Assembly: GCF_001677475.2 (NCBI RefSeq) | Contig: NZ_CP015229.1 | Reading direction: 5' to 3' (one strand) | Length of the DNA stretch: 64,000 nt | DNA from: Escherichia coli | Lineage (GTDB): Bacteria; Pseudomonadota; Gammaproteobacteria; Enterobacterales; Enterobacteriaceae | Part shown: positions 7,577 to 61,715 of the stretch, one piece after another | Position numbering within the stretch: position 1 is the stretch's first letter | Layout of the letters: the number at the start of each line of letters is the position of its first letter | The notes under the pieces: model-generated | What the model was told of the DNA's origin: nothing | The model's input: only the letters and a program-made list of their open reading frames with translations | Databases searched by the model: none | Translations under genes and position numbers: made by a program

Positions 7577-7594
7577 TTTTTCTCCCTTATTGGC
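7577..7594 (+). promoter_or_regulatory. BaeR box upstream of mdtA
   Basis: tttttctcccttattggc closely matches the published BaeR consensus TTTTTCTCCATDATTGGC as I recall it; lies ~55 nt upstream of the mdtA start. Confidence 0.55.
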
Positions 7595-7647
7595 TGGCTA
7601 CACTAGTATCATTCCGCGAAACGTTTCAGGAAGAGAAACTCTTAACG

Positions 7648-8895
7648 ATGAAAGGCAGTTATAAATCCCGTTGGGTAATCGTAATCGTGGTGGTTATCGC
7701 CGCCATCGCCGCATTCTGGTTCTGGCAAGGCCGCAATGACTCCCGGAGTGCAGCCCCAGGGGCGACGAAACAAGCGCAGCAATCGCCAGCGGGTGGTCGC
7801 CGTGGTATGCGTTCCGGCCCATTAGCCCCGGTTCAGGCGGCGACCGCCGTAGAACAGGCAGTTCCGCGTTACCTCACCGGGCTTGGCACCATTACCGCCG
7901 CTAATACTGTTACGGTGCGCAGCCGCGTGGACGGTCAACTGATGGCGTTGCATTTCCAGGAAGGCCAGCAGGTCAAAGCAGGCGATTTATTGGCAGAAAT
8001 TGACCCCAGCCAGTTCAAAGTTGCATTAGCACAAGCCCAGGGCCAACTGGCAAAAGATAAAGCCACGCTTGCCAACGCCCGCCGTGACCTGGCGCGTTAT
8101 CAACAACTGGTAAAAACCAATCTCGTCTCCCGCCAGGAGCTGGATGCCCAACAAGCGCTGGTCAGTGAAACCGAAGGCACCATTAAGGCTGATGAAGCAA
8201 GCGTCGCCAGCGCACAGCTGCAACTCGACTGGAGCCGTATTACCGCACCAGTCGATGGTCGCGTTGGTCTCAAGCAGGTTGATGTTGGTAACCAAATCTC
8301 CAGTGGTGATACCACCGGGATTGTGGTGATCACCCAGACGCATCCTATCGATTTGCTCTTTACCCTGCCGGAAAGCGATATCGCTACCGTCGTGCAGGCG
8401 CAAAAAGCCGGGAAACCGCTGGTGGTAGAAGCCTGGGATCGCACCAATTCAAAGAAATTAAGCGAAGGCACGCTGTTAAGTCTCGATAACCAAATCGATG
8501 CCACAACCGGTACGATTAAAGTGAAAGCACGCTTTAATAATCAGGATGATGCGCTGTTTCCCAATCAGTTTGTTAACGCGCGCATGTTAGTCGACACCGA
8601 ACAAAACGCCGTAGTGATCCCAACAGCCGCCCTGCAAATGGGCAATGAAGGCCATTTTGTCTGGGTGCTGAATAGCGAAAACAAGGTCAGCAAACATCTG
8701 GTGACGCCGGGCATTCAGGACAGTCAGAAAGTGGTGATCCGTGCAGGTATTTCTGCGGGCGATCGCGTGGTGACAGACGGCATTGATCGCCTGACCGAAG
8801 GGGCGAAAGTGGAAGTGGTGGAAGCCCAGAGCGCCACTACTCCGGAAGAGAAAGCCACCAGCCGCGAATACGCGAAAAAAGGAGCACGCTCCTGA
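7648..8895 (+). CDS. mdtA: RND efflux membrane fusion protein
   Basis: Track ORF 7501..8895; ATG at 7648 gives 415 aa starting [26 protein letters not shown] (signal anchor). Stop overlaps the mdtB start. Confidence 0.9.
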
Positions 8896-20661: not shown

Positions 20662-20695
20662 TTAATTTCGATTATTTTTCCCGGATGGAAAATTC

Positions 20696-20711
20696 TTAGA
20701 AACCGATCACA
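20696..20711 (+). promoter_or_regulatory. Putative CRP site upstream of cyaR
   Basis: TTAGAaaccgaTCACA resembles the CRP consensus TGTGA-N6-TCACA and is centred ~42 nt upstream of the cyaR 5' end; candidate -10 tatcat at 20733-20738. Weak left half-site. Confidence 0.4.
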
Positions 20712-20745
20712 TACAGCTGCATTTATTAAGGTTATCATCCGTTTC

Positions 20746-20832
20746 GCTGAAAAACATAACCCATAAAATGCTAGCTGTACCAGGAACCACCTCCTTAGCC
20801 TGTGTAATCTCCCTTACACGGGCTTATTTTTT
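20746..20832 (+). ncRNA. cyaR: CyaR (RyeE) Hfq-dependent sRNA
   Basis: gctgaaaaacataacccataaaatgctagctgtaccaggaaccacctccttagcctgtgtaatctcccttacacgggcttatttttt matches the CyaR sequence as I recall it, including the terminal hairpin and U-tail. Confidence 0.85.
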
Positions 20833-21160
20833 ATGCATAAGCCCTATCCCTGATAACCGTCTTCCATTGACCACATCGATAGAATCCCCCTTCATAGCAC
20901 GATGCCTTTCACTTAACGGCATCGTGCTCGCCCAGGTTCCGGCTACGCACGGCCAGAACGCGCATGTTTGACGCTTACCAAAAAATGAACCTAAAGCATT
21001 GGAATATTTTTGACATCATTTTCTGATGGCGGCATAGAATAAAAATTCTGCTTTAGTTTCATCTATCTGTTTGTCATTATTACTCACATTCAATAATGGT
21101 GTTGAAGAACATCTATCAGAGATAAAAATGAATGTGTCCATGGTAGTCTTGAATCTATTC

Positions 21161-21478
21161 TCACTCTCCACATTTGAATGTCAGACGAGCGACGCCATGT
21201 AATCCTGCACCTTCTGTCTTCAGGTCAACTATCTGCATTTTTTTGCCCTGAGTAACACAGAAATGGGCTGCATCATTTTTTACTATATTTTCTGCACCAG
21301 AAATTCTGCCCCTGGCTAAAGAAGCTTCGGCTTCGGTGTAGTATTGGTTATCGAGTTTACGCTGAATATTACTTTTATATGCAAGGCCAAATTTACCGAT
21401 ACTTGTCTCATCATTATGCACAGCACAACCAGACATAAGAAAAACACTAATTAATGATATAGCAGCTATCTTGTTCAC
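21161..21478 (-). CDS. yegR: Small lipoprotein YegR
   Basis: Track ORF 21161..21538; GTG at 21478 gives 105 aa starting VNKIAAISLISVFLMSGC (lipobox LMSGC). Start codon choice is inferred. Confidence 0.6.
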   Translation of the reverse strand: MNKIAAISLISVFLMSGCAVHNDETSIGKFGLAYKSNIQRKLDNQYYTEAEASLARGRISGAENIVKNDAAHFCVTQGKKMQIVDLKTEGAGLHGVARLTFKCGE

Positions 21479-21894
21479 CTCACCTTCCCCCATTAAATAC
21501 CAACGACACTCTCTAGTGTTTAAATATAATAATGGCATGATTATTATAATTGAATAGGATTATAATAAATATTCTGTACAACATTTCCTACATAAGTAGG
21601 AATTACGGACATGGAGGCCCTTCCGGGTAACTCCATGGGGGGCTTTAATATATTTTGAATAGTATATTGAAGATGCCACTGTTTAGTTGAATTATTAGGT
21701 ATATGCTCTTTTTTGAAATTTATCGGTAGCTGCCGTTAGTATTCGCTGTCCCCATTGCAAGCTCCTGGTGGTAACCACTGAATCCTCCATACTTGAACTG
21801 ACTTTTTATCCTCCGACTTTCATCCTGTTCTGACTCCACCTTTTCTTTTCTGCTCTACACTATCTACAGACCAATCATAAAGGCACATACGATC

Positions 21895-22794
21895 ATGGCA
21901 GAATTTCCCGCCAGCTTACTGATTCTTAATGGCAAAAGTACTGACAATTTACCATTGCGCGAAGCAATTATGCTTTTGCGTGAGGAAGGAATGACGATCC
22001 ATGTGCGGGTCACCTGGGAGAAAGGTGATGCCGCACGATTTGTAGAGGAGGCCCGGAAGTTGGGCGTCGCAACGGTGATTGCCGGTGGTGGCGATGGCAC
22101 CATTAATGAAGTTTCTACGGCGTTGATTCAGTGTGAGGGGGATGACATACCCGCGCTGGGAATTTTGCCATTAGGAACCGCCAATGATTTTGCCACCAGT
22201 GTAGGGATTCCTGAGGCACTGGATAAGGCACTGAAACTGGCAATTGCCGGTAACGCCATTGCAATAGATATGGCGCAGGTCAACAAACAAACCTGTTTTA
22301 TTAATATGGCGACAGGCGGGTTTGGGACGCGTATTACCACAGAAACGCCGGAAAAATTAAAAGCCGCGCTGGGTGGCGTCTCTTACATCATTCATGGCTT
22401 AATGCGTATGGATACTCTGCAACCGGACCGTTGTGAAATCCGCGGTGAAAACTTTCACTGGCAAGGTGACGCCCTGGTCATTGGTATTGGTAACGGGCGT
22501 CAGGCCGGTGGCGGTCAACAATTGTGCCCGAACGCGTTAATTAACGATGGCTTGCTGCAACTGCGCATTTTTACCGGCGATGAAATTCTTCCGGCTCTCG
22601 TATCAACCTTAAAATCTGACGAAGATAACCCGAATATTATCGAAGGCGCTTCGTCGTGGTTTGATATACAAGCCCCACACGAAATCACTTTTAATCTTGA
22701 TGGCGAACCGTTGAGTGGGCAAAACTTCCATATTGAAATACTTCCGGCGGCGTTACGTTGTCGATTACCACCAGATTGTCCATTATTGCGTTAA
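21895..22794 (+). CDS. yegS: Lipid kinase YegS (DAG-kinase catalytic domain family)
   Basis: 299-aa ORF with GGDGT motif ([13 protein letters not shown]). Confidence 0.85.
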
Positions 22795-22828
22795 TCAAAC
22801 TATTCTTTCTTGAACCAGGGAGAATCCG

Positions 22829-22863
22829 TAATGCCGGATGCGGTGTAAACACCTTATCCGGCA
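22829..22863. repeat. REP-like palindromic element
   Basis: gccggatgcggtgtaaacaccttatccggc palindrome between convergent yegS and gatR. Confidence 0.5.
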
Positions 22864-22875
22864 TACAGAACAATA

Positions 22876-23655
22876 CTACACCGTAATTAATTTTACCCGT
22901 GTCTTCTGCAATGCCAGTTTATCCACCTCTGACACAGCATCATCGGTAATAATAATGTCGATTTTTTCGATTGGCAGTACCTGATTAAAACCACGACGGT
23001 TAAATTTCGATGAATCGAGAACGGCAATCACTTTATTAGCGGCGGTGACCATCGCCCCGCTAATCGAATAACCTTCATTAAAGGTCGTAATACCATTAAC
23101 CGCATCAATACCATCAGCACCGACAAACATTAAATCGGCATTAATATCCTGCAATGAACGCTCGGCAATGGAACCATGCATCGAGCGCGTTTTATGGCGG
23201 ACGGTGCCACCACAGACGACCAGAGTAATGTCTTTATTTTCGGAAAGGGCAAACGCTGCCGGGAGACTATTGGTAATCACCGTGATATTTTTGGCGGTCA
23301 TTAATCCTTCAGCGATAAGCATCGTCGTACTTCCGCTGTCGAGAATAACGGTCATCCCTTCGTGGATCATTTTGACTGCCGCCTGCGCTATTCTGTTTTT
23401 TGGCGCGCTGGCGAGCTGAAATCGCTCTTTAAACCCGACTTCCTGGGTCTCGATTTCACTATTACCAGACATTATTTTCGCCGCACCGCCATGAAAGCGC
23501 GTAACCACGCCTTTTTGTTCGAGAAAGCGCAAATCGGCACGGATTGTCGCTTCCGAGGCAGCAAATACTCCCGCCAGATCCTGAACAAGCACGGTTCCCT
23601 GTTCATTCACTAATTGGATGATCTTATTCCTTCGCTCGAATGAATTCATCGTCAT
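22876..23655 (-). CDS. gatR: DeoR-family repressor of the galactitol operon (intact)
   Basis: 259-aa uninterrupted ORF with N-terminal HTH and C-terminal sugar-phosphate-binding domain; last gene of the gat cluster. Confidence 0.8.
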   Translation of the reverse strand: MTMNSFERRNKIIQLVNEQGTVLVQDLAGVFAASEATIRADLRFLEQKGVVTRFHGGAAKIMSGNSEIETQEVGFKERFQLASAPKNRIAQAAVKMIHEGMTVILDSGSTTMLIAEGLMTAKNITVITNSLPAAFALSENKDITLVVCGGTVRHKTRSMHGSIAERSLQDINADLMFVGADGIDAVNGITTFNEGYSISGAMVTAANKVIAVLDSSKFNRRGFNQVLPIEKIDIIITDDAVSEVDKLALQKTRVKLITV

Positions 23656-23754
23656 TTACCCATATTCAATTGTGGCTAGTGTAAACGAAGGGGGACCATT
23701 GGTGAATGATCTGTTTTGCACAATACCGGGCCAGCATCACGCTGGCCCGCGGTT

Positions 23755-24795
23755 TCAGGGAATGAGCAACACTTTGCCCGGCATAGCATTACGAGCGATG
23801 TCACGCACCGCCTGGGCGAAGCATTCAAAGCTTCCACTGTGAGCGATTAATGGCTCCAGGCTTAACTTACGCTCTGTCAGCAACCGGCTCGCCGTTTCCC
23901 ACTCCTGCCCCGGCCAAGGGCTGGAGTAGTTCATCCAACTGCCGATAACCGTCAGCTCTTTACGCAATATTTTGCCAAACGTTGCCGATGTTAAATGCAG
24001 ATCCTGATGCAATGTGCCCACCAGCGCCAGTTGGGCATGAGGACCGGCAATCTCTACCGCCAGTTCGACGGTTTGCGGGACGCCAGCCGTCTCGAGGATA
24101 AGCTGATTAAAGCGCAGCTCGCGTAAAACGCCCTGCATTTGCGGCGCGCTCATTTCGCTACTGTTAAATGTTTGCATCGCACCGAAAGATTTTGCCAGTG
24201 CCAGTTTTTCTGAGCTAATGTCGATAGCCGTCACACTCTTTGCTCCCAGCGCGACAGCGCACTGAATGGCCAGCAGGCCAATGGTTCCGGCACCAATAAT
24301 AATAACGTTTTTATTCTCACAACCTTGCGCTAAATGAAAAGCATGCAGGCCAACGGTAATCGGTTCAATAAAAGCCCCATCCTCAATAGGCATGTCCGCA
24401 GGTAGAGCAAAGACATTTTTCCGCTTAACGACAATATATTCGGCAAATCCACCATCACGCCGTGAGCCAATAAAATCATATTTTGCGCACTGGGAATAAA
24501 ACCCTTTCAGACACTCTGGACAAGTAAAACAGGGTAATAACGGTACACAGGCAACCGCATCGCCAGGGTGTAAATCATCAACACCGGATCCCACCGCATC
24601 AATATAGCCGCTAAATTCATGGCCTAACGTTATTGGATAATAATGTGCACCATTTTTAAATATCCTGGGTAAATCGGAACCACATAAGCCCGAGCTGGCA
24701 ATTTTTACCCGCACCTCATCCTGATGTTTAATTTCAGGAATGACGCTTTCTGCAACGCGCACGATACCATCAGTATCATTCACCACTGATTTCAT
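23755..24795 (-). CDS. gatD: Galactitol-1-phosphate 5-dehydrogenase (Zn-dependent ADH family)
   Basis: 346-aa ORF with GHEFSG zinc-ADH motif and GAGTIG Rossmann motif. Confidence 0.9.
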   Translation of the reverse strand: MKSVVNDTDGIVRVAESVIPEIKHQDEVRVKIASSGLCGSDLPRIFKNGAHYYPITLGHEFSGYIDAVGSGVDDLHPGDAVACVPLLPCFTCPECLKGFYSQCAKYDFIGSRRDGGFAEYIVVKRKNVFALPADMPIEDGAFIEPITVGLHAFHLAQGCENKNVIIIGAGTIGLLAIQCAVALGAKSVTAIDISSEKLALAKSFGAMQTFNSSEMSAPQMQGVLRELRFNQLILETAGVPQTVELAVEIAGPHAQLALVGTLHQDLHLTSATFGKILRKELTVIGSWMNYSSPWPGQEWETASRLLTERKLSLEPLIAHSGSFECFAQAVRDIARNAMPGKVLLIP

Positions 24796-46112: not shown

Positions 46113-46243
46113 CCCGACTCCTTTTTTGTATAGATAAACCATCAGCTGATAGTTTACCTGAAGAATATAGAGAAGTACTTACTTAACATTTTCCCATTTG
46201 GTACTATCTAACCCCTTTTCACTATTAAGAAGTAATGCCTACT

Positions 46244-48277
46244 ATGACTCAAGTCGCGAAGAAAATTCTGGTGACGTGCGCACTGCCGTACGCTAACGGC
46301 TCAATCCACCTCGGCCATATGCTGGAGCACATCCAGGCTGATGTCTGGGTCCGTTACCAGCGAATGCGCGGCCACGAGGTCAACTTCATCTGCGCCGACG
46401 ATGCCCACGGCACACCGATCATGCTGAAAGCTCAGCAGCTTGGTATCACTCCGGAGCAGATGATTGGCGAAATGAGTCAGGAGCATCAGACTGATTTCGC
46501 AGGCTTTAACATCAGCTATGACAACTATCACTCAACGCACAGCGAAGAGAACCGCCAGTTGTCAGAACTTATTTATTCTCGCCTGAAAGAAAACGGTTTT
46601 ATTAAAAACCGCACCATCTCTCAGCTGTACGATCCGGAAAAAGGCATGTTCCTGCCGGACCGTTTTGTGAAAGGCACCTGCCCGAAATGTAAATCCCCGG
46701 ATCAATACGGCGATAACTGTGAAGTCTGCGGCGCGACCTACAGCCCGACTGAGCTGATCGAGCCTAAATCGGTGGTTTCTGGTGCTACGCCGGTAATGCG
46801 TGATTCTGAACACTTCTTCTTTGATCTGCCCTCTTTCAGCGAAATGCTGCAGGCATGGACCCGCAGCGGCGCGTTGCAGGAGCAAGTGGCAAACAAAATG
46901 CAGGAGTGGTTTGAATCTGGCCTGCAACAGTGGGATATCTCCCGCGATGCGCCGTACTTCGGTTTTGAAATTCCGAACGCACCGGGCAAATATTTCTACG
47001 TCTGGCTGGATGCGCCGATTGGCTACATGGGTTCTTTCAAGAATCTGTGCGACAAACGCGGCGACACCACCAGCTTCGATGAATACTGGAAGAAAGATTC
47101 CACCGCCGAGCTGTACCACTTCATCGGTAAAGATATCGTTTACTTCCACAGCCTGTTCTGGCCTGCCATGCTGGAAGGCAGCAACTTCCGCAAGCCGACC
47201 AACCTGTTTGTTCATGGCTATGTGACGGTGAACGGCGCGAAGATGTCCAAGTCTCGCGGCACCTTTATTAAAGCCAGCACCTGGCTGAATCATTTTGACG
47301 CTGACAGCCTGCGTTACTACTACACTGCGAAACTCTCTTCGCGCATTGATGATATCGATCTCAACCTGGAAGATTTCGTTCAGCGTGTGAATGCCGATAT
47401 CGTGAATAAAGTGGTTAACCTGGCCTCCCGTAACGCTGGCTTTATCAACAAGCGTTTTGACGGCGTGCTGGCAAGCGAACTGGCTGACCCGCAGTTGTAC
47501 AAAACCTTCACGGATGCCGCTGAAGTGATTGGTGAAGCATGGGAAAGCCGCGAATTTGGTAAAGCAGTGCGCGAAATTATGGCGCTGGCTGATCTGGCTA
47601 ACCGCTATGTCGATGAACAGGCTCCGTGGGTGGTGGCGAAACAGGAAGGCCGCGATGCCGACCTGCAGGCAATTTGTTCGATGGGCATCAACCTGTTCCG
47701 CGTGCTGATGACTTACCTGAAGCCGGTACTGCCGAAACTGACCGAGCGTGCAGAAGCATTCCTCAATACAGAACTGACCTGGCATGGTATCCAGCAACCG
47801 CTGCTGGCGCATAAAGTGAATCCGTTCAAGGCACTGTATAACCGTATCGATATGAAACAGGTGGAAGCACTGGTGGAAGCATCCAAAGAAGAAGTGAAAG
47901 CCACAGCCGCACCGGTAACTGGCCCACTGGCTGACGACCCGATTCAGGAAACCATCACCTTTGACGACTTCGCCAAAGTTGACCTGCGTGTGGCGCTGAT
48001 TGAAAACGCGGAGTTTGTTGAAGGCTCTGACAAACTGCTGCGTCTGACACTGGATCTCGGTGGTGAAAAGCGTAATGTCTTCTCAGGCATCCGTTCTGCT
48101 TATCCAGACCCACAGGCACTGATTGGTCGTCACACCATTATGGTGGCCAACCTGGCACCACGTAAAATGCGCTTCGGTATCTCCGAAGGCATGGTGATGG
48201 CTGCCGGTCCTGGCGGGAAAGATATCTTCCTGCTAAGCCCGGATGCCGGTGCTAAACCGGGTCATCAGGTGAAATAA
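46244..48277 (+). CDS. metG: Methionyl-tRNA synthetase
   Basis: Track ORF 46235..48277; ATG at 46244 gives 677 aa starting [19 protein letters not shown] with HIGH (HLGH) and KMSKS motifs. Confidence 0.95.
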
Positions 48278-48417: not shown

Positions 48418-51400
48418 ATGAGACACTTTATCTTTCAGGACGAAAAATCACATAAATTCTGGGCGGTGGAGCAGCAGGGAAACGAGCTGCATATCAACTG
48501 GGGAAAAGTCGGCACCAACGGGCAAAGTCAGGTAAAAAGCTTTGCTGATGCTGCGGCGGCGGAAAAAGCGGAACTGAAGTTGATTGCGGAGAAGATTAAG
48601 AAGGGGTATGTGGATGATGGTTCGCCAGAAACCATCATAAACTCTCCGATATCAAGCACAGTTTCAGTACAAGAGTTAGCAATATCAACAGGAAACTTCA
48701 CAACGACTGAAACGGCACAGCCACAAGCGATGCCCACGTTGGAAACGCCGCCCTGGCTGAAGAACGGTGAGTCAATTGTTATTTTTGCCAATGCTGAACC
48801 CGCGCCGTTTAGCCATCGTCACTTGATTAATGATCCTCTGGACATTGTTGATAAAGATGGCTTCTTCTGGATACAACTAAAAGAGTACCCATATTGGGCA
48901 GCATTTTACCTTGCCTGTCTGCAAAAGTTCGATGTCAGCCAATGCCAGTCAGAATGGCAATTGGCGTTACAGGAAACTATTTCGCGCATCCAGAAATTAC
49001 AGCAAGACGGATCGTTGCTTTCCGACGTCATATTGACACTGACAAGATTAATTATCGGCCGCCCCGGTCGCCCTCATACATGGCTGGATAGCATAGTGCA
49101 ACTGCGAGGCCTTGAGTATGCCACTGAGTTAGTTATCGCTATGCAGCATGTACAAATGACTGACGACGCAAATACCGATCCTACAAAAAATGCCACTTTA
49201 AAACTTCATTACAATAGTCTTTTTAGTGCGCTGAGAAGAGGGGAAATGGCAGACAATTATTATCTACCTGTAGTAAGCCTTAGCCACGATATTTCCGACA
49301 TGCGCTACAAATATGGATTCAGCGACGAAATAGAGTTACGTTTACGAGAACACCTTTCGCACACAGATGAGGAAACCTGGCAACGCTGTGCTAATAAACT
49401 CATAGATGCTCTCCCTTCACTGCCTCCCCGCAAACGCCCATTAATTGCTTTTTTGCTACCAGAAAAACCAGATATTGCCAATCAGATAGCCCTGGAAATT
49501 GCCCCTATGCATGATTACCCAGAGATTGAGTGGCTTTCCCTTGTCACAACTGACCCGCAAGCAACGTGTCTGCTGAAGAATTTCCATCAACTTGAACTCA
49601 CAACGGGATGGGGAGGCGATATGACGAATCGTTGTATTAAAACCCTACTGCGTGAACAAGGTCTTAATGCCCTGTCACGTCTGCAAGAGGGAGTTAACGA
49701 TAGTTATCCTGTCAGACACGCACTTCAGGAAATTAACCATCCTGATGTCGTTACGTTGTTTATCAAAGAGGAATGTGCCATAGGTGTCGAAATTTCGGCT
49801 TCGAAGTACCCAGAATCGGCGCTTTATGCCCTTACTGCAGCTTTGCTTAGTGCTAAAAATCTGAGGTATTCTCGCCTGATGGAACGAATTGTATTAGGTA
49901 ATGCTCAAACCTTGCGTAATACAATGCCCTGGTTGAGTGAGGAACAGAAACAACTTTTATTCAGTTATTTTCCTCAACTTCATGCTAAAGAAGAGATAGC
50001 CAATGCTTGTGAGTTACCCGGTATATTAACTAATCCAATTTGGCTGAAGAAAAAGAATAAATCCGCCACGACGATATTTACATTACCCGTATTGCCTCTG
50101 GAGTCCATTGGCCCCAACCCTCAGCCACAACCCGAAGCAGAAATACCTTCTACTGCTGAAGTCTTACGCCACCTGGGATTCAGTAGTGGAGCATTTGAAG
50201 AGAATAATCCTGATCCAGAAAGATTCGATATTAAATGGGGCGTAACCAAAACGGCCATTCGTCTTCTGGAAACGGAAGATTATGAATCGTTGTTAAATAC
50301 CCGACCAAAGTATGATTATGAAGGTTTTATTACCTTTTATGTATCCATACTCACTCGTCTACCAGCAGAGAAAGCGCTCTCAATCTGGAATGGACTCTCA
50401 CACATGCACCTCGTGGGTGCTGAGAAAGTGGTTGAGCGATTTGGTCTATCTACGGTACCGGGTCTGTTGCGTTATGCCCTGGTAAACCCTAAGGAGGCGG
50501 TTCCCCTGGCAGCACAATTCGGTGCAACTGAAGTTGCCCTGCTGATGGCCCGCGCATTTTGCCAGTTAAAATCCGTACGAGATGTCGCCGAATATTGGCT
50601 CACCACCTACCCGGAACATGCCATTACCGGGCTGCTGCCTATTGCGCTGGGTAAACCAGTTAAAGAACAACAAGATGCCCGGATGACATTACGCTACCTG
50701 GTCAATAATGGTCATCTCGCGTTGCTGAAAAAAATTGCCAGCCGTTACCAACAACCTGAGGTAATAACTGCACTTACCGACTTTTTAGCAGCAGATCCGC
50801 TGGAAAACTATCCACAGAAAATCGCCAAACTCCCTGGGTGGTGTTCACCAGAAGTATGGCACCGCCCGCTTCTGCGCAGTAACGGCAAGGCACTTTCAGA
50901 TTCAGCCATCCTGCACCTGTGCACCATGCTCTCTTTTCCCCGCGAAGCCACCCTTTACCCAGGGATAACACAGGTAATCAAGGCCTGTACTCCGCAATCT
51001 CTTGCCGATTTCGCCTGGGATCTCTTCCTCAGTTGGGAATCTGCCAGTGGCTCCGCTAAAGATAACTGGGCATTTACCGCACTGGGGATTCTGGGCAACG
51101 ATGACACCGCCCGCAAACTCACCCCGCTCATCCGCGCCTGGCCGGGGGAATCTCAGCATAAACGCGCCACTGTCGGGCTGGATATTCTTGCTGCTATCGG
51201 CAGCGATATCGCCCTGATGCAGCTTAACGGCATCGCGCAAAAGCTAAAATTTAAAGCCTTGCAGGATCAGGCAAGAGTTAAAATCGCCCAGATTGCCGAA
51301 AGCCGCCAACTCACCGTCGCAGAAATGGAAGACCGGTTAGCGCCGGATCTCGGACTGGATGATAACGGCTCACTACTGCTGGATTTCGGCCCACGCCAGT

Positions 51401-52254
51401 TCACCGTCAGCTTTGATGAATCCTTAAAACCGTTTGTGCGCGATGCTTCCGGCAGCCGCCTGAAAGACCTGCCCAAACCGAACAAAAGCGATGATGAAAC
51501 ACTGGCTGAGGAAGCGGTAAATCGCTACAAGTTGTTGAAAAAAGATGTCCGCACGGTGGCAGCGCAACAAATTTCGCGTCTGGAAGCCGCCATGTGTCAG
51601 CGTCGCCGCTGGACAGCAGAACAGTTCCGCCTGTTTCTGGTTGAGCATCCCCTGGTACGTCATATCACCCAACGTCTGATGTGGGGCGTATACGATGCAG
51701 ATAATCAGCTTATCACCTGTTTTCGCGTGGCGGAGGATGGCAGTTTTAGCGACGGTCAGGATAACCCGTTAACCCCTGCGCAGGGTAGCATCGGTATCCC
51801 GCATGTGCTGGAAATCCCGGCCCCGCAGGCGGCTGAATTTGCTCAACTGTTTTCTGACTACGAACTCCTGCCACCGTTCCGTCAACTCGATCGCCCCTGG
51901 TCTCAGCTCTCTGATTCAGAAAAAAACAGCAACGATTTGCAGCGCTGGGCTGGTCGCCAGGCACCAAGTGGGCGCGTCGCCGGGCTGATGAATAAAGGCT
52001 GGCAACGGGGCGATGTGCTGGATGGTGGCGGCTATTACTCATTTTATAAAGCTGTGGATGATGGCTACGTCGAACTGAGTGTGACACCCGGCTTCAGTGT
52101 TGGATTACCCGTCACCGAAATCAGCGCCAGCCAAAAAATTGAGCACATTCAGTTGTGCAAACTGACGCCGCACAAATCGGTTTATCCCTTCTCCGTGCTC
52201 GACGACATCACCGCCAGCGAACTCATTAACGATATTGAATCACTGTTTGATTAA
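48418..52254 (+). CDS. molR: Giant WGR-domain/DUF4132-type protein, paralog 1 (molR-like), 1278 aa
   Basis: Uninterrupted 1278-aa ORF; N-terminal ~60 aa has WGR-domain character (KFWAVEQQGNELHINWGKVGTNGQSQ); C-terminal ~350 aa conserved with paralogs 2 and 3. Symbol from memory of the K-12 locus after metG. Confidence 0.75.
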   Translation: MRHFIFQDEKSHKFWAVEQQGNELHINWGKVGTNGQSQVKSFADAAAAEKAELKLIAEKIKKGYVDDGSPETIINSPISSTVSVQELAISTGNFTTTETAQPQAMPTLETPPWLKNGESIVIFANAEPAPFSHRHLINDPLDIVDKDGFFWIQLKEYPYWAAFYLACLQKFDVSQCQSEWQLALQETISRIQKLQQDGSLLSDVILTLTRLIIGRPGRPHTWLDSIVQLRGLEYATELVIAMQHVQMTDDANTDPTKNATLKLHYNSLFSALRRGEMADNYYLPVVSLSHDISDMRYKYGFSDEIELRLREHLSHTDEETWQRCANKLIDALPSLPPRKRPLIAFLLPEKPDIANQIALEIAPMHDYPEIEWLSLVTTDPQATCLLKNFHQLELTTGWGGDMTNRCIKTLLREQGLNALSRLQEGVNDSYPVRHALQEINHPDVVTLFIKEECAIGVEISASKYPESALYALTAALLSAKNLRYSRLMERIVLGNAQTLRNTMPWLSEEQKQLLFSYFPQLHAKEEIANACELPGILTNPIWLKKKNKSATTIFTLPVLPLESIGPNPQPQPEAEIPSTAEVLRHLGFSSGAFEENNPDPERFDIKWGVTKTAIRLLETEDYESLLNTRPKYDYEGFITFYVSILTRLPAEKALSIWNGLSHMHLVGAEKVVERFGLSTVPGLLRYALVNPKEAVPLAAQFGATEVALLMARAFCQLKSVRDVAEYWLTTYPEHAITGLLPIALGKPVKEQQDARMTLRYLVNNGHLALLKKIASRYQQPEVITALTDFLAADPLENYPQKIAKLPGWCSPEVWHRPLLRSNGKALSDSAILHLCTMLSFPREATLYPGITQVIKACTPQSLADFAWDLFLSWESASGSAKDNWAFTALGILGNDDTARKLTPLIRAWPGESQHKRATVGLDILAAIGSDIALMQLNGIAQKLKFKALQDQARVKIAQIAESRQLTVAEMEDRLAPDLGLDDNGSLLLDFGPRQFTVSFDESLKPFVRDASGSRLKDLPKPNKSDDETLAEEAVNRYKLLKKDVRTVAAQQISRLEAAMCQRRRWTAEQFRLFLVEHPLVRHITQRLMWGVYDADNQLITCFRVAEDGSFSDGQDNPLTPAQGSIGIPHVLEIPAPQAAEFAQLFSDYELLPPFRQLDRPWSQLSDSEKNSNDLQRWAGRQAPSGRVAGLMNKGWQRGDVLDGGGYYSFYKAVDDGYVELSVTPGFSVGLPVTEISASQKIEHIQLCKLTPHKSVYPFSVLDDITASELINDIESLFD

Positions 52255-52266
52255 AAGGATTTAGCA

Positions 52267-55200
52267 ATGAAAACCTATATTTATCAGGACGAAAAATCAC
52301 ATAAATTCTGGGCGGTGGAGCAGCAAGACAACGAGCTGCATATTAGCTGGGGTAAAGTCGGTACTAACGGGCAAAGTCAGGTAAAAAGCTTTGCTGATGC
52401 TGCGGCGGCGGAAAAAGCGGAACTGAAGTTGATTGCGGAGAAAACAAAAAAGGGCTACGTAGAAGAAGTATCCGTGATAACACCGACATCTGTCCCCGTC
52501 CAGGTTATCGAATGCCCCGAAATAGCCCCTTTGCCACAAGACAAACCAGTATTTGTTGGAGACAACCTCCCCTGGCTGGCAGACGACGCCCAAATCATTT
52601 TACCGACAGAGGTTGCGCCAACCACACTAAGTCATCGACGCTGGCCTGGCGATCCTGTGCCACAGGAGAATGAATTAACTCTGCTACGCTCCGTCGCCGC
52701 GAATACTCACCGACGTTTTAAAAAGGTGATCACCTTCGATTACAGCACCTGTTCACTGGACTGGCAGCAGGCGATAACACAAGCAGTGGGCCTTATCGAC
52801 TCGCCGATTAGCACCACGCTACCACCGATGGTTCTGGCGGTACTGGTTGCGCTGGAACAAGGCTTCAATCGTAACGATCACGAAGAGTTAATGGATCAAA
52901 TTGTCCAGGAAGGTGGTCTGGAATATGCCACTGAGGTTGTCATTGCACTACAATTCATCCGCTTCGACTGGGATTATGATGCCCATCTTATTACGTTCAC
53001 CCCGGATGACAGGCAGCCTGGCTATCTGTTGCGCTTTGCCTCGGTTGAAATGCGCCTGCGCAAGCATTTCTCACTTGCAAATGACGATGTATGGCAGCGC
53101 TGCGCCGACAAACTGATTGCCGCTCTCGGAAACATGCCCGCCTGGCACCAGCCGCTGGTTGCACTATTGTTGCCGGAAAAACCAGAAGTAGCTCATGAGA
53201 TTGCCAGACATTTTTGCGGGCAAAAAGGGTTATATGCGCTGGAATGGCTAAAACTGACGGTCACCGATGCTCAGGTATTAGCAGACCTGGAAAAATACTA
53301 TCCAGGACAGCCTGGGCAGGTATTTGATGATTACTATGGCGGTAACATCTGGTGTGCGACAGCACTCCAGGAGCAAGGAGTCACTGCGCTGGCCCGTTTT
53401 GCCCATTACGCTACTGGTGACACATGTGGTGAAGTGTTGATGCATATCAACCACCCGCAGGCACTTACACTACTTATCCATGCAAGCGAGCAAGGAAAGC
53501 GTTGCCACGATCGCATGACAAAGGCTTTCGTTCGCTTCCCACACGCAGCGCTGGCGGCATTAGCAGAACTTCTGGCACAAAAAGATGAAAAGCGCTGGCG
53601 CATGATGCTAATGACGATGCTTATCTCGCAACCGGCACTAGCAGAACAGGTCACTCCCTGGCTCTCAACCCCCGCAGTTGCAGTGCTGAAATCATGCCAG
53701 CAACAACTGACACAGCCCTCAAACCATGCCAGCGCCGATCTACTGCCAGCCATATTAGTCTCACCGCCCTGGCTTTCGAAAAAGAAAAAATCTGTAATGC
53801 CGGTATTGGATTTAACGCCATTACCGCTGGAGTCATGCTGCACATTGACCGAGACGGCAGAAAAAGAGATTCATGCAAGGCATCGCTGGCACGCACATCA
53901 AATAGACGTCGGCCAAAAAGAGGATATTCAGAACTACCTGACACGTCTGGGTTTCAATCGCTGGAATAATGGCCAGTATATGAAAGCGTCTGATGCTGTT
54001 GTAGAACTCTGGCAGAGGGGAGATTATTCTGCGCTAATCAGCGAATTTAAAACCTTCTGGCACTCCTATCAACGGGAATGGCAGCTTTACATGTTAGCCG
54101 CCCTGCCTATCGAAAAAACAGCGCAGGCGTGGAATGTCCTCAGTAAAGAGCCACACGTCGGTGTCGAGTTTGTCATGACGCACCTGCAACTCGCTGGGTT
54201 ACAGGGTTTTATTCACTCCTTTTCACGCTATCCACAAGAAGCTCTGCCTGTAGCACAATATTTTGCGGCTATCGAATTAGCGCCACTGATCGCCCGCGCC
54301 TTCAACAAACTCAAAACCCTACGACAAGACGCCCGCACCTGGCTGCTGAAATACCCGGAACACGCCATTACCGGCCTGCTACCTTCGGCGCTCGGCAAAG
54401 CCGGTGAAGCACAGGATAACGCCCGCGCTGCCTTGCGTATGCTTACCGAAAACGGTCATCAGCCATTACTGCAAGAAATCGCCCGGCGTTATAACCAGCC
54501 GGAAGTAACAGATGCGGTGAACGCTCTGCTTGCGCTCGATCCCTTAGATAATCACCCGACAAAAATCCCCACTCTTCCGGCCTTTTATCAGCCATCGCTC
54601 TGGACGCGCCCGGTATTAAAAGCAAATGCCCAATCACTGCCAGATAGCGCCCTCCTACGCCTCGGCGAAATGCTCCGCTTCCCTCAGGAAGAGGCACTGT
54701 ATCCGGGATTATTGCAGGTGAAAGCCGCCTGTACCGCCGACTCACTGGCTGAATTTGCCTGGGATCTGTTTACCGCCTGGCAGACCGCTGGCGCACCGTC
54801 GAAAGAAAGCTGGGCGTTCACTGCGTTAGGTGTTCTCGGCAACGATGACACCGCCCGCAAACTGACGCCTTTGATTCGCGCCTGGCCTGGTGAATCCCAG
54901 CATAAACGCGCCACCGTCGGGCTGGATATTCTCGCTGCTATCGGTAGTGATATCGCCCTGATGCAGCTTAACGGGATCGCCCAGAAACTGAAATTCAAAG
55001 CATTACAGGAGCGGGCAAAAGAAAAAATTGCCGACATTGCCGAGAGTCGCGAACTGACGGTAGCGGAGCTTGAAGATCGGTTAGCACCGGATCTCGGTCT
55101 GGATGATAACGGTTCGCTGCTGCTGGATTTTGGCCCACGGCAGTTCGCCGTCAGCTTTGATGAAACCTTAAAACCGTTTGTGCGCGATGTTTCCGGCAGC

Positions 55201-56028
55201 CGCCTGAAAGACTTACCTAAACCCAATAAAAGCGATGATGAATCACAGGCGAACGATGCTGTTAACCGCTACAAATTGCTGAAAAAAGATGCGCGTACCG
55301 TCGCCGCCCAGCAGGTAGCAAGGCTGGAATCCGCCATGTGCCTGCGCCGCCGCTGGTCGCCGGAAAACTTTCAGCTCTTCCTGGTTGAGCATCCGCTGGT
55401 TCGTCACTTAACCCGCCGTCTGATTTGGGGCGTTTATAGCGCCGAAAACGAGCTACTGGCTTGCTTTCGCGTGGCGGAAGATAACAGCTACAGCACCACA
55501 GACGATGATCTTTTCACCCTGCCGGAAGGCGATATCTCTGTTGGTATTCCTCACGTTCTGGAAATATCACCCACGGATGCCGCTGCCTTTGGTCAGCTTT
55601 TTGCCGACTACGAACTGTTACCGCCGTTCCGCCAGCTTGACCGCAACAGTTACGCGCTGACAGAAGCCGAACGCAACGCCAGTGAACTGTCCCGCTGGGC
55701 CGGCAGAAAATGTCCGAGCGGTCGAGTAATGGGGCTGGCGAATAAAGGCTGGATGCGTGGTGAACCGCAGGACGGTGGCTGGATCAGCTGGATGATCAAA
55801 CCTCTGGGCCGCTGGTCGTTAATTATGGAAATCGATGAAGGTTTTGCGGTCGGCATGTCGCCAGCCGAACTGAGTGCCGAGCAACTCTTAAGCAAGGTGT
55901 GGCTATGGAAAGGCAAAGCAGAAAACTATGGCTGGAGGAGTTATTCAACACAGGAAGCGCAGTTCTCCGTACTCGATGACATCACCGCCAGCGAGCTGAT
56001 TAGCGATATTGAATCTCTGTTTGAATAA
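52267..56028 (+). CDS. Giant WGR-domain/DUF4132-type protein, paralog 2, 1253 aa
   Basis: Uninterrupted 1253-aa ORF 12 nt downstream of paralog 1, with near-identical N-terminal WGR segment and conserved C-terminal region. Confidence 0.75.
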   Translation: MKTYIYQDEKSHKFWAVEQQDNELHISWGKVGTNGQSQVKSFADAAAAEKAELKLIAEKTKKGYVEEVSVITPTSVPVQVIECPEIAPLPQDKPVFVGDNLPWLADDAQIILPTEVAPTTLSHRRWPGDPVPQENELTLLRSVAANTHRRFKKVITFDYSTCSLDWQQAITQAVGLIDSPISTTLPPMVLAVLVALEQGFNRNDHEELMDQIVQEGGLEYATEVVIALQFIRFDWDYDAHLITFTPDDRQPGYLLRFASVEMRLRKHFSLANDDVWQRCADKLIAALGNMPAWHQPLVALLLPEKPEVAHEIARHFCGQKGLYALEWLKLTVTDAQVLADLEKYYPGQPGQVFDDYYGGNIWCATALQEQGVTALARFAHYATGDTCGEVLMHINHPQALTLLIHASEQGKRCHDRMTKAFVRFPHAALAALAELLAQKDEKRWRMMLMTMLISQPALAEQVTPWLSTPAVAVLKSCQQQLTQPSNHASADLLPAILVSPPWLSKKKKSVMPVLDLTPLPLESCCTLTETAEKEIHARHRWHAHQIDVGQKEDIQNYLTRLGFNRWNNGQYMKASDAVVELWQRGDYSALISEFKTFWHSYQREWQLYMLAALPIEKTAQAWNVLSKEPHVGVEFVMTHLQLAGLQGFIHSFSRYPQEALPVAQYFAAIELAPLIARAFNKLKTLRQDARTWLLKYPEHAITGLLPSALGKAGEAQDNARAALRMLTENGHQPLLQEIARRYNQPEVTDAVNALLALDPLDNHPTKIPTLPAFYQPSLWTRPVLKANAQSLPDSALLRLGEMLRFPQEEALYPGLLQVKAACTADSLAEFAWDLFTAWQTAGAPSKESWAFTALGVLGNDDTARKLTPLIRAWPGESQHKRATVGLDILAAIGSDIALMQLNGIAQKLKFKALQERAKEKIADIAESRELTVAELEDRLAPDLGLDDNGSLLLDFGPRQFAVSFDETLKPFVRDVSGSRLKDLPKPNKSDDESQANDAVNRYKLLKKDARTVAAQQVARLESAMCLRRRWSPENFQLFLVEHPLVRHLTRRLIWGVYSAENELLACFRVAEDNSYSTTDDDLFTLPEGDISVGIPHVLEISPTDAAAFGQLFADYELLPPFRQLDRNSYALTEAERNASELSRWAGRKCPSGRVMGLANKGWMRGEPQDGGWISWMIKPLGRWSLIMEIDEGFAVGMSPAELSAEQLLSKVWLWKGKAENYGWRSYSTQEAQFSVLDDITASELISDIESLFE

Positions 56029-56037
56029 GGAAATAAC

Positions 56038-59000
56038 ATGAACAAGGAATTACCGTGGCTGGCGGATAACGCACAACTGGAACTGAAATATAAAAAAGGC
56101 AAAACGCCGCTCAGCCATCGCAGTTGGCCGGGCGAACCGGTGCCTGTTATTACTGAAAGCCTCATCCAGACACTGGGTGATGAATTGCTACAAAAAGCTG
56201 AGAAGAAAAAAAACATTATCTGGCGTTATGAAAATTTTTCACTGGAGTAGCAGTCCGCCATCACGGAAGCCATCAACTTGATTGGCGAACACAAACCCTC
56301 AATTCCGGCACGGACAATGGCGGCGCTAGTCTGTATCGCGCAAAAGGACAGCCAACAGTTGCTCGACGAAATCGTCCAACAAGAGGGACTGGAATATGCG
56401 ACTGAGGTGGTGATTGCACGCCAGTTTATTACACGATGTTATGAGAGTGATCCTCTGCTAGTGACATTGCAGTATCAGAACGAGGACTATGGCTATGGTT
56501 ATCGCTCAGAAACCTATAACGAATTCGATCTGCGACTGCGTAAGCATCTCTCTCTGGCAGAGGAAAGCTGCTGGCAGCGTTGCGCCGACAAACTCATTGC
56601 CGCACTGCCAGGAATACCCAAAATTCGCCGTCCTTTTATTGCGCTGGTCCTCCCGGAAAAACCAGAAATAGCCAATGAGTTGGTAGGTCTTGAATGCCCG
56701 CGGACTCATTTTCATTCTAAGGAGTGGTTAAAAGCTGTTGCTACTGCCCCCCGGGCGGTGAGAAAACTCGAACACTACTGGAGCCAGGATATATTTAGCG
56801 ATCGCGAAGCCAGCTACATGTCGCATGAAAACCGCTTCGGGTACGCGGCCTGCGCCGCCCTTTTGCGTGAACAAGGACTGGCAGCCGTTCCGCGCCTGGC
56901 AATGTATGCCCATAGAGAGGATTGCGGAAGCCTGCTGGTACAAATTAACCATCCGCAGGTCATCCGCACCTTGCTGTTAGTTGCTGATAAAAACAAACCC
57001 AGCCTGCAACGTGTGGCTAAATACAGTAAAAATTTCCCCCACGCGACACTCGCCGCACTGGCAGAACTGCTGGCGCTAAAAGAACCACCTGCGCGTCCTG
57101 GTTATCCAATCATCGAAGACAAAAAGCTGCCTGCACAGCAAAAAGCACGTGATGAATACTGGCGTACGCTGTTACAAACGCTGATGGCATCGCAGCCACA
57201 ACTGGCAGAAGAGGTGATGCCGTGGTTAAGTACTCAAGCCCGGTCAGTGCTGAATAGTTATTTATCGGCACCGCCTAAAACGGTTATTGATAGCACCGAT
57301 AACAGCCAAATGCCTGAAATCCTCGTTTCACCACCGTGGCGTAGTAAGAAAAAAATGACAGTTCCACGTCTTGATTTGGCACCGTTCGAATTAACGCCGC
57401 AAGTTTACTGGAAACCAGGCGAACGAGAGAGGCTTGCCGCCACTGAGTCTGCCCGTTATTTCAGTACGGAATCTCTTGCGGAACGCATGGAACATAAAAG
57501 TGGACGAGTTGTACTACAGGAGCTGGGTTTTGGAGATGATGTATGGCTGTTTTTGAATTATATACTCCCCGGAAAACTGGATGCTGCACGCAATTCACTC
57601 ATTGTTCAGTGGCATTACTACCCAGGGCGGGTTGAAGAGATCATGAATGGCTGGAGCTCCCCGGAAGCTCAATTAGCAGAACAGGCGCTTCGCAGCGGTC
57701 ACGTAGAAGTGTTAATTAACATATGGGAAAATGACAGCTACTCACGCTATCGTCGGGAAAAGAGTATCTGGAACCTGTATTTATTGGCGCAGTTGCCGCG
57801 TGAGATGGCTTTGACTTTCTGGCTACGTATCAATGAGAAAAAGCATCTGTCTGCGGGTGAGGACTATTTTCTCAGTATCTTCGGATTGGATGCTCTACTA
57901 GGTCTGCTGTTGGCTTTTTCACATCGTCCAAAAGAAACATTTCCGTTAATTTTAAATTTCGGCGCAACCGAACTAGCCCTGCCCGTTGCCCGCGTCTGGC
58001 GACGTTTCGCGGCGCAGCGTGATCTGGCCCGCCAGTGGATTTTACAATGGCCGGAACATACGGCTACTGCACTTATCCCTCTTGTCTTCACCAAATCCAG
58101 CGATAATAGCGAAGCTGCATTACTTGCCCTGCGTTTACTTTACGAACAGGGACATGGCGAGTTACTGCAAACCGTGGCAAACCGCTGGCAGCGTACAGAT
58201 GTATGGCCTGCCCTGGAGCAATTACTTAAACAGAGTCCAATAGAGATTTACCCGACACGCATTCCAAAAGCCCCTGATTTCTGGCAGCCGGCAATGTGGT
58301 CCAGGCCGCGCCTTATCACGAATAATCAACCTGTTACTGATGACGCTCTGGAAATTATCGGCGAAATGCTGCGCTTTACCCAGGGCGGACGTTTTTATAG
58401 CGGACTGGAACAGCTGAAAACGTTTTGCCAGCCGCAAACGCTGGCAGCCTTTGCCTGGGATCTTTTCACCGCGTGGCAACAAGCTGGTGCTCCCGCAAAA
58501 GACAACTGGGCATTTCTGGCGTTAAGTCTCTTTGGCGACGAAAGCACGGCACGGGATCTGACGACACAGATCCTTGCCTGGCCACAGGAAGGCAAATCTG
58601 CCCGTGCTGTCAGTGGTCTGAATATACTTACTCAGATGAATAATGATATGGCACTGATACAGTTGCATCATATATCGCAACGGGCGAAATCCCGCCCCTT
58701 ACGTGATAACGCGGCGGAATTTCTTCAGGTGGTCGCAGAAAATCGCGGGCTAAGCCAGGAACAGTTAGCGGACAGATTAGTCCCAACACTGGGTCTTGAT
58801 GATCCGCAGGCGTTGATTTTTGATTTTGGTCCACGGCAATTTACCGTTCGCTTCGATGAAAACCTTAACCCGGTTATCTTTGATCAGCAAAACGTTCGCC
58901 AGAAAAGCGTTCCCCGGTTGCGCGCCGATGACGATCAACTGAAAGCACCCGAGGCACTGGCCCGACTAAAAGGGCTAAAAAAAGATGCCACTCAGGTGAG

Positions 59001-59670
59001 CAAAAACCTGCTCCCGCGTCTTGAAACTGCCCTGCGCACCACCCGACGCTGGTCGCTGGCAGATTTTCATTCTCTGTTTGTTAATCATCCCTTTACCCGC
59101 CTGGTTACTCGGCGATTGATATGGGGTGTTTATCCGGCAAATGAACCGCGTCGTTTACTCAACGCCTTTCGTGTGGCCGCTGAGGGGGAGTTCTGCAATG
59201 CGCAAGATGAGCCAATTGACCTGCCTGCCGATGCTCTGATTGGCATTGCCCACCCGTTAGAAATGGCAGCAGAAATGCGCAGTGAATTTGCACAGCTTTT
59301 TGCCGATTACGAAATTATGCCGCCTTTTCGCCAGTTGGCACGGCGCACAGTGCTGCTCACGCCTGACGAGTCAGCCAGTAATAGTTTGAATCGCTGGGAA
59401 GGTAAATCTGCTACCGTTGGGCAACTTATGGGAATGCGATACAAAGGCTGGGAGTCAGGCTATGAGAACGCATTTGTCTATGACCTGGGCGAGTACCGGC
59501 TGGTCCTTAAGTTTTCATCCGGTTTTAACCACTACAATGTTGATAGCAAAGCGCTAATGAGCTTCCGTTCTCTTCATGTATACCGTGAGAATAAATCTGT
59601 CACTTTTGCCGAACTTGATGTGTTTGATTTGAGTGAAGCGTTAAGCGCACCCGACGTTATTTTCCATTAA
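56038..59670 (+). pseudogene. yehI: yehI-like DUF4132 paralog 3 with in-frame amber codon at 56248..56250
   Basis: Track ORFs 56038..56250 and 56278..59670 are in the same frame, separated only by TAG (..ENFSLE*QSAITEAINLIGEH..). The full span is 1210 codons plus stop. Lacks the WGR N-terminal module of paralogs 1 and 2. Confidence 0.75.
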
Positions 59671-59730
59671 AACACAGCGGGCAGTGATGCGACTGCCCGT
59701 TATTAACACGACCTGCCACCGGGAAAAGCG

Positions 59731-60051
59731 ATGATCGTGCAAAAAGAGCTGGTCACTATTTACGATTATGAGGCCCCTGTACCTGAAGAGCCGTTTTCCT
59801 TCAGGCTTGAGATCCATAAACGCTCTGAATTATTTACAGGTTCCGTCTATCGACTGGAACGATTCCGGCTACGTCCAACATTTCATCAACGTGATCGAGA
59901 AGATGTCGACCCGCTAATAAATGATGCGTTGATTTATATAAGAGATGAGTTTATTGATGAGCGAAAATTACGAGGTGAATCACCTGAAACTGTAATAGCA
60001 ATTTTTAATCGCGAACTACAAAATATATTCAACCAACAAATAGAAAAATAG
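59731..60051 (+). CDS. yehK: Small protein YehK
   Basis: 106-aa ORF; position after yehI matches the gene order as I recall it. Confidence 0.7.
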   Translation: MIVQKELVTIYDYEAPVPEEPFSFRLEIHKRSELFTGSVYRLERFRLRPTFHQRDREDVDPLINDALIYIRDEFIDERKLRGESPETVIAIFNRELQNIFNQQIEK

Positions 60052-60104: not shown

Positions 60105-60194
60105 TTACTTCAACAAATCAATCAACCGTAACAGAGCCACTAATAGCTCCAGTACAGCAATGAGCACGGTTAACTTTTGTGTCAGCGTGTCCAT
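60105..60194 (-). CDS. Candidate 29-aa hydrophobic/amphipathic peptide (MDTLTQKLTVLIAVLELLVALLRLIDLLK)
   Basis: Minus-strand ATG at 60194 preceded by AAGGAG with 5-nt spacing; 29 codons then TAA. Not in the track (below 60 aa). Composition resembles small membrane peptides and type I toxins. Confidence 0.4.
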   Translation of the reverse strand: MDTLTQKLTVLIAVLELLVALLRLIDLLK

Positions 60195-60490
60195 CCGCTC
60201 TCCTTATTAAGGAGCGCAATACCAGCACCTTACCCTTACACTGCCTGTCGATACTGGTTTACGTATGTTGGACCACGATGTTGCACTCCGGATCAGGGCA
60301 CCACCTGCAGCACCACCCGTCCGGTAGCCAGGACTTAAAATTGGTCCGATCCGGCGCAACGTCCCAACCGTCTGGATTATAAATCTCATTATCTTAATTG
60401 CAACGGGGTCCACCGATGGTTATAATTCGTTCGTTGGAACACGATGTTGCACAGGCTGCGGTGTTGGGCCTGAAAATAGTAAATAAAAGA

Positions 60491-60516
60491 ACCTGCCTCA
60501 CCAGCAGGTTTTTTTA
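60491..60516 (+). terminator. Rho-independent terminator on the plus strand upstream of yehL
   Basis: Stem acctgc/gcaggt with 7-nt loop followed by ttttttt (60510-60516); implies a plus-strand transcript ending here with no annotated gene. Confidence 0.6.
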
Positions 60517-60626
60517 TTTACTGTGATCTGCTTTCCAGATATTTTTCGCTCAAACAACTAATGCGCAAAACATTTATTGCGCGTAAAATATCGTTTATTT
60601 CATTAATACATTTCAGGGATGAATAT

Positions 60627-61715
60627 ATGTCACCGCAGAATAATCATCTGCAGCGTCCGCCTGCCGCTGTGTTATACGCCGATGAACTGGCAAAATTAAA
60701 ACAAAATGATAACGCACCTTGCCCGCCAGGTTGGCAGTTAAGTTTGCCTGCGGCCCGCGCTTTTATCCTTGGCGACGAAGCGCAAAATATTAGCCGTAAA
60801 GTCGTGATCAGTCCCTCCGCTGTCGAACGCATGTTAGTCACTCTCGCTACCGGGCGCGGTTTGATGTTGGTGGGGGAACCTGGCACCGCAAAATCTCTCC
60901 TGTCTGAATTACTGGCGACCGCTATTAGCGGCGATGCCGGGTTAACCATCCAGGGCGGCGCATCTACCACCGAAGATCAAATCAAGTACGGCTGGAACTA
61001 CGCCCTGCTTATCAACCATGGTCCGTCAACGGAAGCGCTGGTCCCTGCCCCGCTTTACCAGGGAATGCGCGACGGCAAAATTGTCCGTTTTGAAGAGATA
61101 ACGCGTACACCGCTGGAAGTACAAGACTGTCTGTTAGGTATGCTTTCTGACAGGGTAATGACGGTGCCGGAACTCACTGGTGAAGCCAGTCAGCTCTATG
61201 CGCGGGAAGGCTTTAATATTATTGCCACTGCCAATACCCGCGATCGCGGCGTCAATGAAATGAGTGCTGCGCTAAAGCGTCGCTTCGATTTTGAAACTGT
61301 CTTTCCGATTATGGATTTCGCCCAGGAGCTGGAACTGGTCGCCAGTGCTTCCGCGCGTTTGCTGGCCCATAGCGGTATTCCGCATAAAGTGCCTGACGCG
61401 GTACTGGAATTACTGGTGCGCACGTTCCGCGATCTGCGTGCCAACGGCGAAAAGAAAACGTCAATGGATACACTGACAGCGATTATGTCCACCGCTGAAG
61501 CCGTTAACGTGGCCCATGCTGTGGGTGTCCGCGCCTGGTTTTTAGCGAATCGCGCGGGGGAGCCTGCCGACCTGGTGGATTGTATTGCCGGAACCATCGT
61601 CAAAGATAACGAAGAAGATCGCGCGCGTCTGCGCCGTTACTTCGAACAGCGCGTCGCCACACATAAAGAAGCTCACTGGCAGGCTTATTATCAAGCTCGC
61701 CACCGCCTGCCGTGA
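60627..61715 (+). CDS. yehL: AAA+ ATPase (MoxR-like)
   Basis: Track ORF 60561..61715; ATG at 60627 gives 362 aa starting MSPQNNHLQRPPAAVLYADELAKL; Walker A LVGEPGTAKS. Confidence 0.8.
   Translation: MSPQNNHLQRPPAAVLYADELAKLKQNDNAPCPPGWQLSLPAARAFILGDEAQNISRKVVISPSAVERMLVTLATGRGLMLVGEPGTAKSLLSELLATAISGDAGLTIQGGASTTEDQIKYGWNYALLINHGPSTEALVPAPLYQGMRDGKIVRFEEITRTPLEVQDCLLGMLSDRVMTVPELTGEASQLYAREGFNIIATANTRDRGVNEMSAALKRRFDFETVFPIMDFAQELELVASASARLLAHSGIPHKVPDAVLELLVRTFRDLRANGEKKTSMDTLTAIMSTAEAVNVAHAVGVRAWFLANRAGEPADLVDCIAGTIVKDNEEDRARLRRYFEQRVATHKEAHWQAYYQARHRLP

Follow-up and report, generated by a model that had tools for sequence, protein, structure and literature searches.

A probable recent nonsense pseudogene of yehI in the metG-proximal DUF4132 cluster of one Escherichia coli lineage

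The window considered in this work is a stretch of 64,000 nucleotides of Escherichia coli DNA (contig NZ_CP015229.1 of assembly GCF_001677475.2), in which metG (46235-48277) is followed by two DUF4132 paralogs, yehI, yehK and yehL, an order that is shared with annotated genomes. Paralog 1 (48418..52254, plus strand) codes for 1278 aa and, as judged from the list of open reading frames and a domain search, is intact and combines WGR and DUF4132 domains. Paralog 2 (52267..56028, plus strand) is likewise intact with the same two domains, codes for 1253 aa and is about 40% identical to YehI; a gap of 9 nt separates it from the start of yehI. An earlier reading, made from the sequence only, had described yehI as the third paralog of this series, and the domain content of the two upstream genes agrees with that description.

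The yehI frame extends on the plus strand from 56038 to 59670. On translation it comprises 1211 codons, the last of which is the terminal TAA (59668-59670), and codon 71 is the sole other stop. In the list of open reading frames, it therefore appears as two pieces, 56038..56250 (70 aa) and 56278..59670 (1130 aa, with a TTG start), and the translation confirms what the sequence-only reading had stated, namely that both share one frame and are parted by the TAG at 56248-56250. The longest open reading frame in any other frame over 56038-59670 is of about 90 aa. In random sequence about 57 stops would be expected per 1210 codons (3/64 per codon), so that the single internal stop argues for one long gene interrupted once, rather than for a chance pattern. 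The 5' fragment of the gene (56038..56250, plus strand) consists of an ATG-initiated run of 70 sense codons and the premature TAG, and its native start has a good Shine-Dalgarno sequence, AAGGA, with a score of -6.2 kcal/mol. The remainder of the frame (56251..59670, plus strand), covering codons 72-1210 and the TAA, still presents 1139 fully open codons, and shows 98.2% identity to the nearest intact allele. The 5' fragment also contains a homopolymer of eight adenines (56206-56213), located 34 nt upstream of the TAG, which is in frame here, is present in most of the aligned alleles, and could be prone to slippage.

The gene is the orthologue of yehI, as shown by its position, frame length, identity and domain content. 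A yehI query matched 5,330 of the 5,426 complete E. coli genomes, where the gene is annotated as "DUF4132 domain-containing protein YehI". The ten intact alleles fetched from diverse E. coli measure 3633 nt (1210 codons and a stop), with the exception of the O157 allele of 3630 nt, and the length of 1210 codons given for intact YehI by the sequence-only reading is thus correct. In the restored protein, of which 1198 residues were searched against Pfam, DUF4132 (PF13569) was the sole domain found, without any WGR; it spans residues 954-1138 (E = 2.3e-47), corresponding to 58897..59451 on the plus strand, well downstream of the stop. Compared to yehI of E. coli K-12, the gene has the same location between an upstream DUF4132 paralog and yehK, the same length of 3633 nt, the same C-terminal DUF4132 and 94.0% nucleotide identity, yet the window allele carries TAG in place of TGG at codon 71 and belongs to a divergent background.

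Downstream, yehK (59731..60051, plus strand, 106 aa) begins 60 nt after the yehI stop. The interval between the two genes contains a perfect, G+C-rich 8-bp hairpin (59678-59699; CGGGCAGT...ACTGCCCG), which was found by scanning to be terminator-like on the minus strand only, the plus strand continuing with TTATTAACAC; the hairpin may attenuate transcription from yehI into yehK. The spacer between yehK and yehL harbours a type I toxin-antitoxin locus of the zor/orz type, present in single copy. Its predicted zor toxin ORF is on the minus strand (60105-60194; 29 aa, hydrophobic, MDTLTQKLTVLIAVLELLVALLRLIDLLK). The OrzO-P antitoxin RNA, a full-length match to Rfam RF02083 (101 bits), is encoded divergently on the plus strand (60440-60515), some 250 nt upstream of where the toxin ORF starts. 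The z3289/z3290 locus of O157 has been described with the same layout (PMC2887945). The mechanically delimited yehL frame (60561-61715) starts at the ATG at 60561 and would code for 384 aa; gene callers and RefSeq place the start 66 nt further downstream, giving a product of 362 aa (AAA_5). The shorter form is the more plausible, since the longer one would begin just 3' of the OrzO RNA on the same strand.

The codon ancestral to the stop was established by aligning positions 56188-56310 with yehI from other E. coli. Codon 71 is TGG in four diverse alleles, including the divergent O157 allele, and TAG in the window; within these 123 bases, the nearest allele differs from the window solely at the TAG position. 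Moreover, the ten intact alleles, with identities to the window of 91.9-98.2%, are free of internal stops and all have TGG at codon 71. The presence of TGG in every intact allele examined implies that the amber codon (56248..56250, plus strand) is the product of a G>A transition at 56249 in the codon for Trp71, as had been anticipated by the proposal of a single nonsense substitution from TGG or CAG, of which TGG proves to be the ancestral codon. A tryptophan also occupies the aligned site of paralog 2 (SLEWQSAIT in YehI, SLDWQQAIT in paralog 2), and gene conversion from the paralog is thereby ruled out as the source of the stop. A normal gene boundary at this site is also ruled out, as the intact alleles read through it with TGG and have the length of 1210 codons, and the only carriers of the TAG are near-identical relatives of the window. 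The nearest intact allele, that of strain WP4-S18-ESBL-07, is 65 nt away from the window yehI at 98.2% identity; no intact sister allele was found, and no recorded protein matches the Trp-restored YehI exactly.

The stop is located in a part of the protein that is shared with the larger paralogs. Residues 1-70 of YehI align to residues 97-165 of paralog 2, beginning at a common LPWLAD motif just past the WGR module, and YehI itself starts where the post-WGR region of the paralogs starts. The stop thus falls inside the conserved body of the family.

Among the 5,426 complete E. coli genomes, the 123-mer bearing the TAG had no exact match. The best six matches were 99.2% identical, with a single mismatch each, and for one of them (L001) alignment placed this mismatch at the TAG position. 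A 30-mer spanning the TAG was absent from the GTDB species representatives. The exact 70-aa product, in turn, was recovered on at least 23 contigs over 39 index blocks, and is followed there by a DUF4132 gene call of 1117 aa. These contigs derive from three NCBI assemblies (GCA_018682865.1, GCA_018683435.1 and GCA_037967675.1; contig sets JAGEVW01, JAGEXB01 and JBBPGC01), from one ENA metagenome scaffold and from several Logan assemblies of ERR/SRR runs. The TAG at codon 71 was confirmed in all eight carrier loci that were fetched. Both from the window and among themselves, the carrier loci are distinguished by SNPs and a recombined stretch in the flanking regions, and the flank SNPs indicate that they represent separate isolates, one of which (JAGEXB01, GCA_018683435.1) is a Stx2-carrying E. 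coli from Germany, 2018 (PMC8951638). The TAG allele is a fixed feature of a clone or lineage, and not of one strain alone. Pseudogenisation is the best supported of the three explanations offered by the sequence-only reading, although its qualification as strain-specific has to give way to that of a lineage or clone represented on the contigs counted above.

The lineage itself appears to be sparsely represented among complete genomes. The best matches to the window in the set of 5,426 were 98.0% identical for positions 20000-24000, 97.2% for metG and 98.2% for yehI, which places the window, at those three loci, on a branch without a close complete-genome representative in the set. The source lineage, which includes the Stx2-positive German isolate, may belong to a rare phylogroup or a cryptic clade. 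The metG query additionally produced 219 plasmid matches in the complete E. coli genome set, beyond the chromosomal copies.

The carriers also inform on the age of the stop. Six of the eight show no difference from the window across the 3633 nt of yehI, and another (L012) has two changes in the gene, both of them nonsynonymous and none synonymous. The ENA metagenome scaffold (L008; FERR18-1_SAMN06350226_METAG-scaffold_208, with yehI at 6001-9633) has the TAG and the 5' background of the window, together with 69 differences from the window that are confined to three blocks (codons 275-338, 684-767 and 909-1124). This mosaic goes back either to recombination in a descendant of the TAG allele or to the merging of two strains into one chimeric assembly; the clustering of its differences in blocks and the shared 5' background rule the scaffold out as an independent or older carrier, and its mosaic nature renders it uninformative about selection. 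With this scaffold set aside, the carriers offer between 0 and 2 differences by which to assess selection on the downstream part after the gene was split, and both of those seen are nonsynonymous.

A comparison with the ten intact alleles revealed 23 substitutions private to the window allele, namely the nonsense change, 10 missense and 12 synonymous ones. Private substitutions of the intact alleles add up to 169 synonymous and 150 nonsynonymous. As a test for relaxed selection after the stop, the counts of the window allele are no different from those of the intact alleles. The lack of an excess of damaging changes indicates that the stop is recent, and recency is the only property that this test shows. 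The high nonsynonymous share is common to all alleles, which suggests that yehI is in general either weakly constrained or diversifying.

In view of these observations, the window yehI is very probably a recent nonsense pseudogene of the ordinary kind, restricted to one lineage. Following the G>A transition at 56249 that exchanged Trp71 for amber, ribosomes that initiate at the native ATG would release a peptide of 70 residues, without the remainder of the 1210-residue protein, including DUF4132. The stop is located upstream of 94% of YehI, and the outcome, as predicted from the sequence, is most likely a null or severely hypomorphic yehI. Some Rho-dependent polarity on yehK is possible as well, and could occur if yehK is co-transcribed with yehI. 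The loss would presumably be tolerated because YehI is dispensable and because two intact proteins with WGR and DUF4132 domains, encoded directly upstream, are candidate substitutes. The downstream frame would then still be open only because too little time has elapsed for further damage. The 1139 undamaged codons would also fit translational restart or suppression of the stop, and recency explains them equally well.

Restart would imply that translation resumes after the TAG at TTG81, ATG94 or TTG108, and yields an N-truncated YehI that retains DUF4132 and some function, which we regard as unlikely. Ribosomes of E. coli are known to reinitiate downstream of nonsense codons, as in the lacI restarts, and the window offers in-frame starts 27, 66 and 108 nt past the stop as well as an intact downstream frame. 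The first of these starts, the TTG of codon 81 (56278..56280, plus strand), has a partial and weak GGAAG 9 nt upstream (-3.5 kcal/mol); the ATG of codon 94 (56317..56319, plus strand), from which gene callers start the 1117-aa product, has essentially no Shine-Dalgarno sequence (-2.7 kcal/mol); and the TTG of codon 108 (56359, plus strand) has an AAAGGA (-5.3 kcal/mol). The background, as given by the internal NTG codons of yehI, has a mean of -2.2 kcal/mol, with 17% of the codons at -4 or better. The two nearest candidates are therefore close to background and fall short of the native start, a result that argues against a dedicated restart signal, and two of the three candidates are TTG codons. 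The TTG at 56278, which the sequence-only reading had advanced as a restart site, is indeed the first in-frame candidate but finds no support in its score. Furthermore, a restarted product would be devoid of the first 80-107 residues, which are conserved between the paralogs and include the LPWLAD motif and Trp71, and the carriers lack the divergence that would reveal selection on the downstream part, the changes seen being two nonsynonymous and no synonymous ones.

It is quite unlikely that the TAG allele represents a selected variant, either through low-level restart at TTG81, ATG94 or TTG108 that preserves DUF4132, or through an adaptive loss of YehI in a Shiga-toxin-associated lineage. The adaptive-loss version is conceivable because the three DUF4132 paralogs, yehI among them, form a mosaic and rapidly evolving cluster beside the set of MoxR-type ATPase, VWA and SWIM proteins (yehLMPQ), and the properties of the cluster would suit a system for conflict or sensing that gains, loses and diversifies its paralogs.

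Still less credence can be given to amber readthrough, whereby a supE-like glnV/glnX suppressor tRNA (anticodon CUA) or near-cognate decoding would provide full-length YehI. Amber suppressors occur in some E. coli strains and the intact downstream frame is compatible with their action; however, the 64-kb window contains no tRNA gene, wild-type E. coli reads through UAG at a basal rate of far less than 1%, and the stop is conserved in no other lineage and is therefore not a programmed recoding site. Finally, a sequencing or assembly error that conceals a true G at 56249, which had been the remaining option of the sequence-only reading, would belong to the most common type of assembly error, a single-base difference, but is in effect excluded by the identical TAG in independent NCBI, ENA and Logan assemblies, on at least 23 contigs that come from differing projects, technologies and years and carry SNPs relative to one another elsewhere.

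The interpretation of the window yehI as a recent nonsense pseudogene can be set beside the condition of its neighbourhood in other strains. yehI has no match in 96 of the 5,426 complete E. coli genomes and is covered by less than 80% in 108 more, and such missing or partial copies indicate that the gene is dispensable. The genes around it are also damaged in various ways. According to their annotation, the upstream paralog of a K-12-lineage strain has a frameshift and an internal stop, the O157 paralogs exhibit an internal stop and a truncation, the middle paralog of P13-6 is frameshifted, and so is yehK of CU532-9, while in TOE51 a deletion joins yehI to yehM. The state of the window is similar to that of the molR (yehG/yehH) pseudogene of K-12 and of the other decayed paralogs of the cluster, in that one of the tandem DUF4132 genes near metG has been inactivated. 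It differs from them in that the damaged gene is yehI itself and both upstream paralogs with WGR and DUF4132 domains are intact, and the single lesion in the window yehI suggests an event younger than those of the molR-type decayed paralogs. A further parallel is provided by ST131, of which 184 isolates have a transposon in the metG/DUF4132/yeh region; the insertion in sublineage L1a is that of TnMB1860 (PMC9334617). In both instances a disruption of the same cluster defines a lineage, and the insertion of TnMB1860 in a successful E. coli clone indicates that the cluster genes are dispensable. Unlike TnMB1860, which is a transposon with resistance genes, the lesion in the window is a point nonsense mutation without any added DNA.

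The tandem DUF4132 paralogs, represented in the window by 48418-59670, vary strongly among strains, with one to three copies (loci L004 and L018-L021), and the identities of the yehI 5' end extend from 83% to 98%. Private substitutions approach a 1:1 ratio of synonymous to nonsynonymous, and pseudogenes and deletions are frequent. Such a pattern suggests that the DUF4132 cluster beside yehLMPQ is weakly constrained or under diversifying selection. A PADLOC search of the cluster proteins gave no defence-system matches, and an NCBIfam search gave sub-threshold matches only, which concerned the WGR region and AAA ATPases. In the literature on YehI and DUF4132 no functional study was found, the reports found being those on the ST131 disruption and on the nearby zor/orz locus.

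In annotations of this lineage, yehI should be recorded as one pseudogene, interrupted by a stop at Trp71, and not as the pair of genes (70 aa and 1117 aa) produced by automatic callers; beyond annotation, the finding is of little importance. The G>A substitution at 56249 is a possible clonal marker for this E. coli lineage, which has been little sequenced and has a Stx2-positive isolate among its members. At the three loci tested, the lineage is 2-3% distant from all complete E. coli genomes in RefSeq. The yehI stop represents one more case of the repeated decay of the metG-proximal DUF4132/yeh cluster, and this pattern of decay suggests that the large proteins of the DUF4132 cluster are conditionally dispensable.
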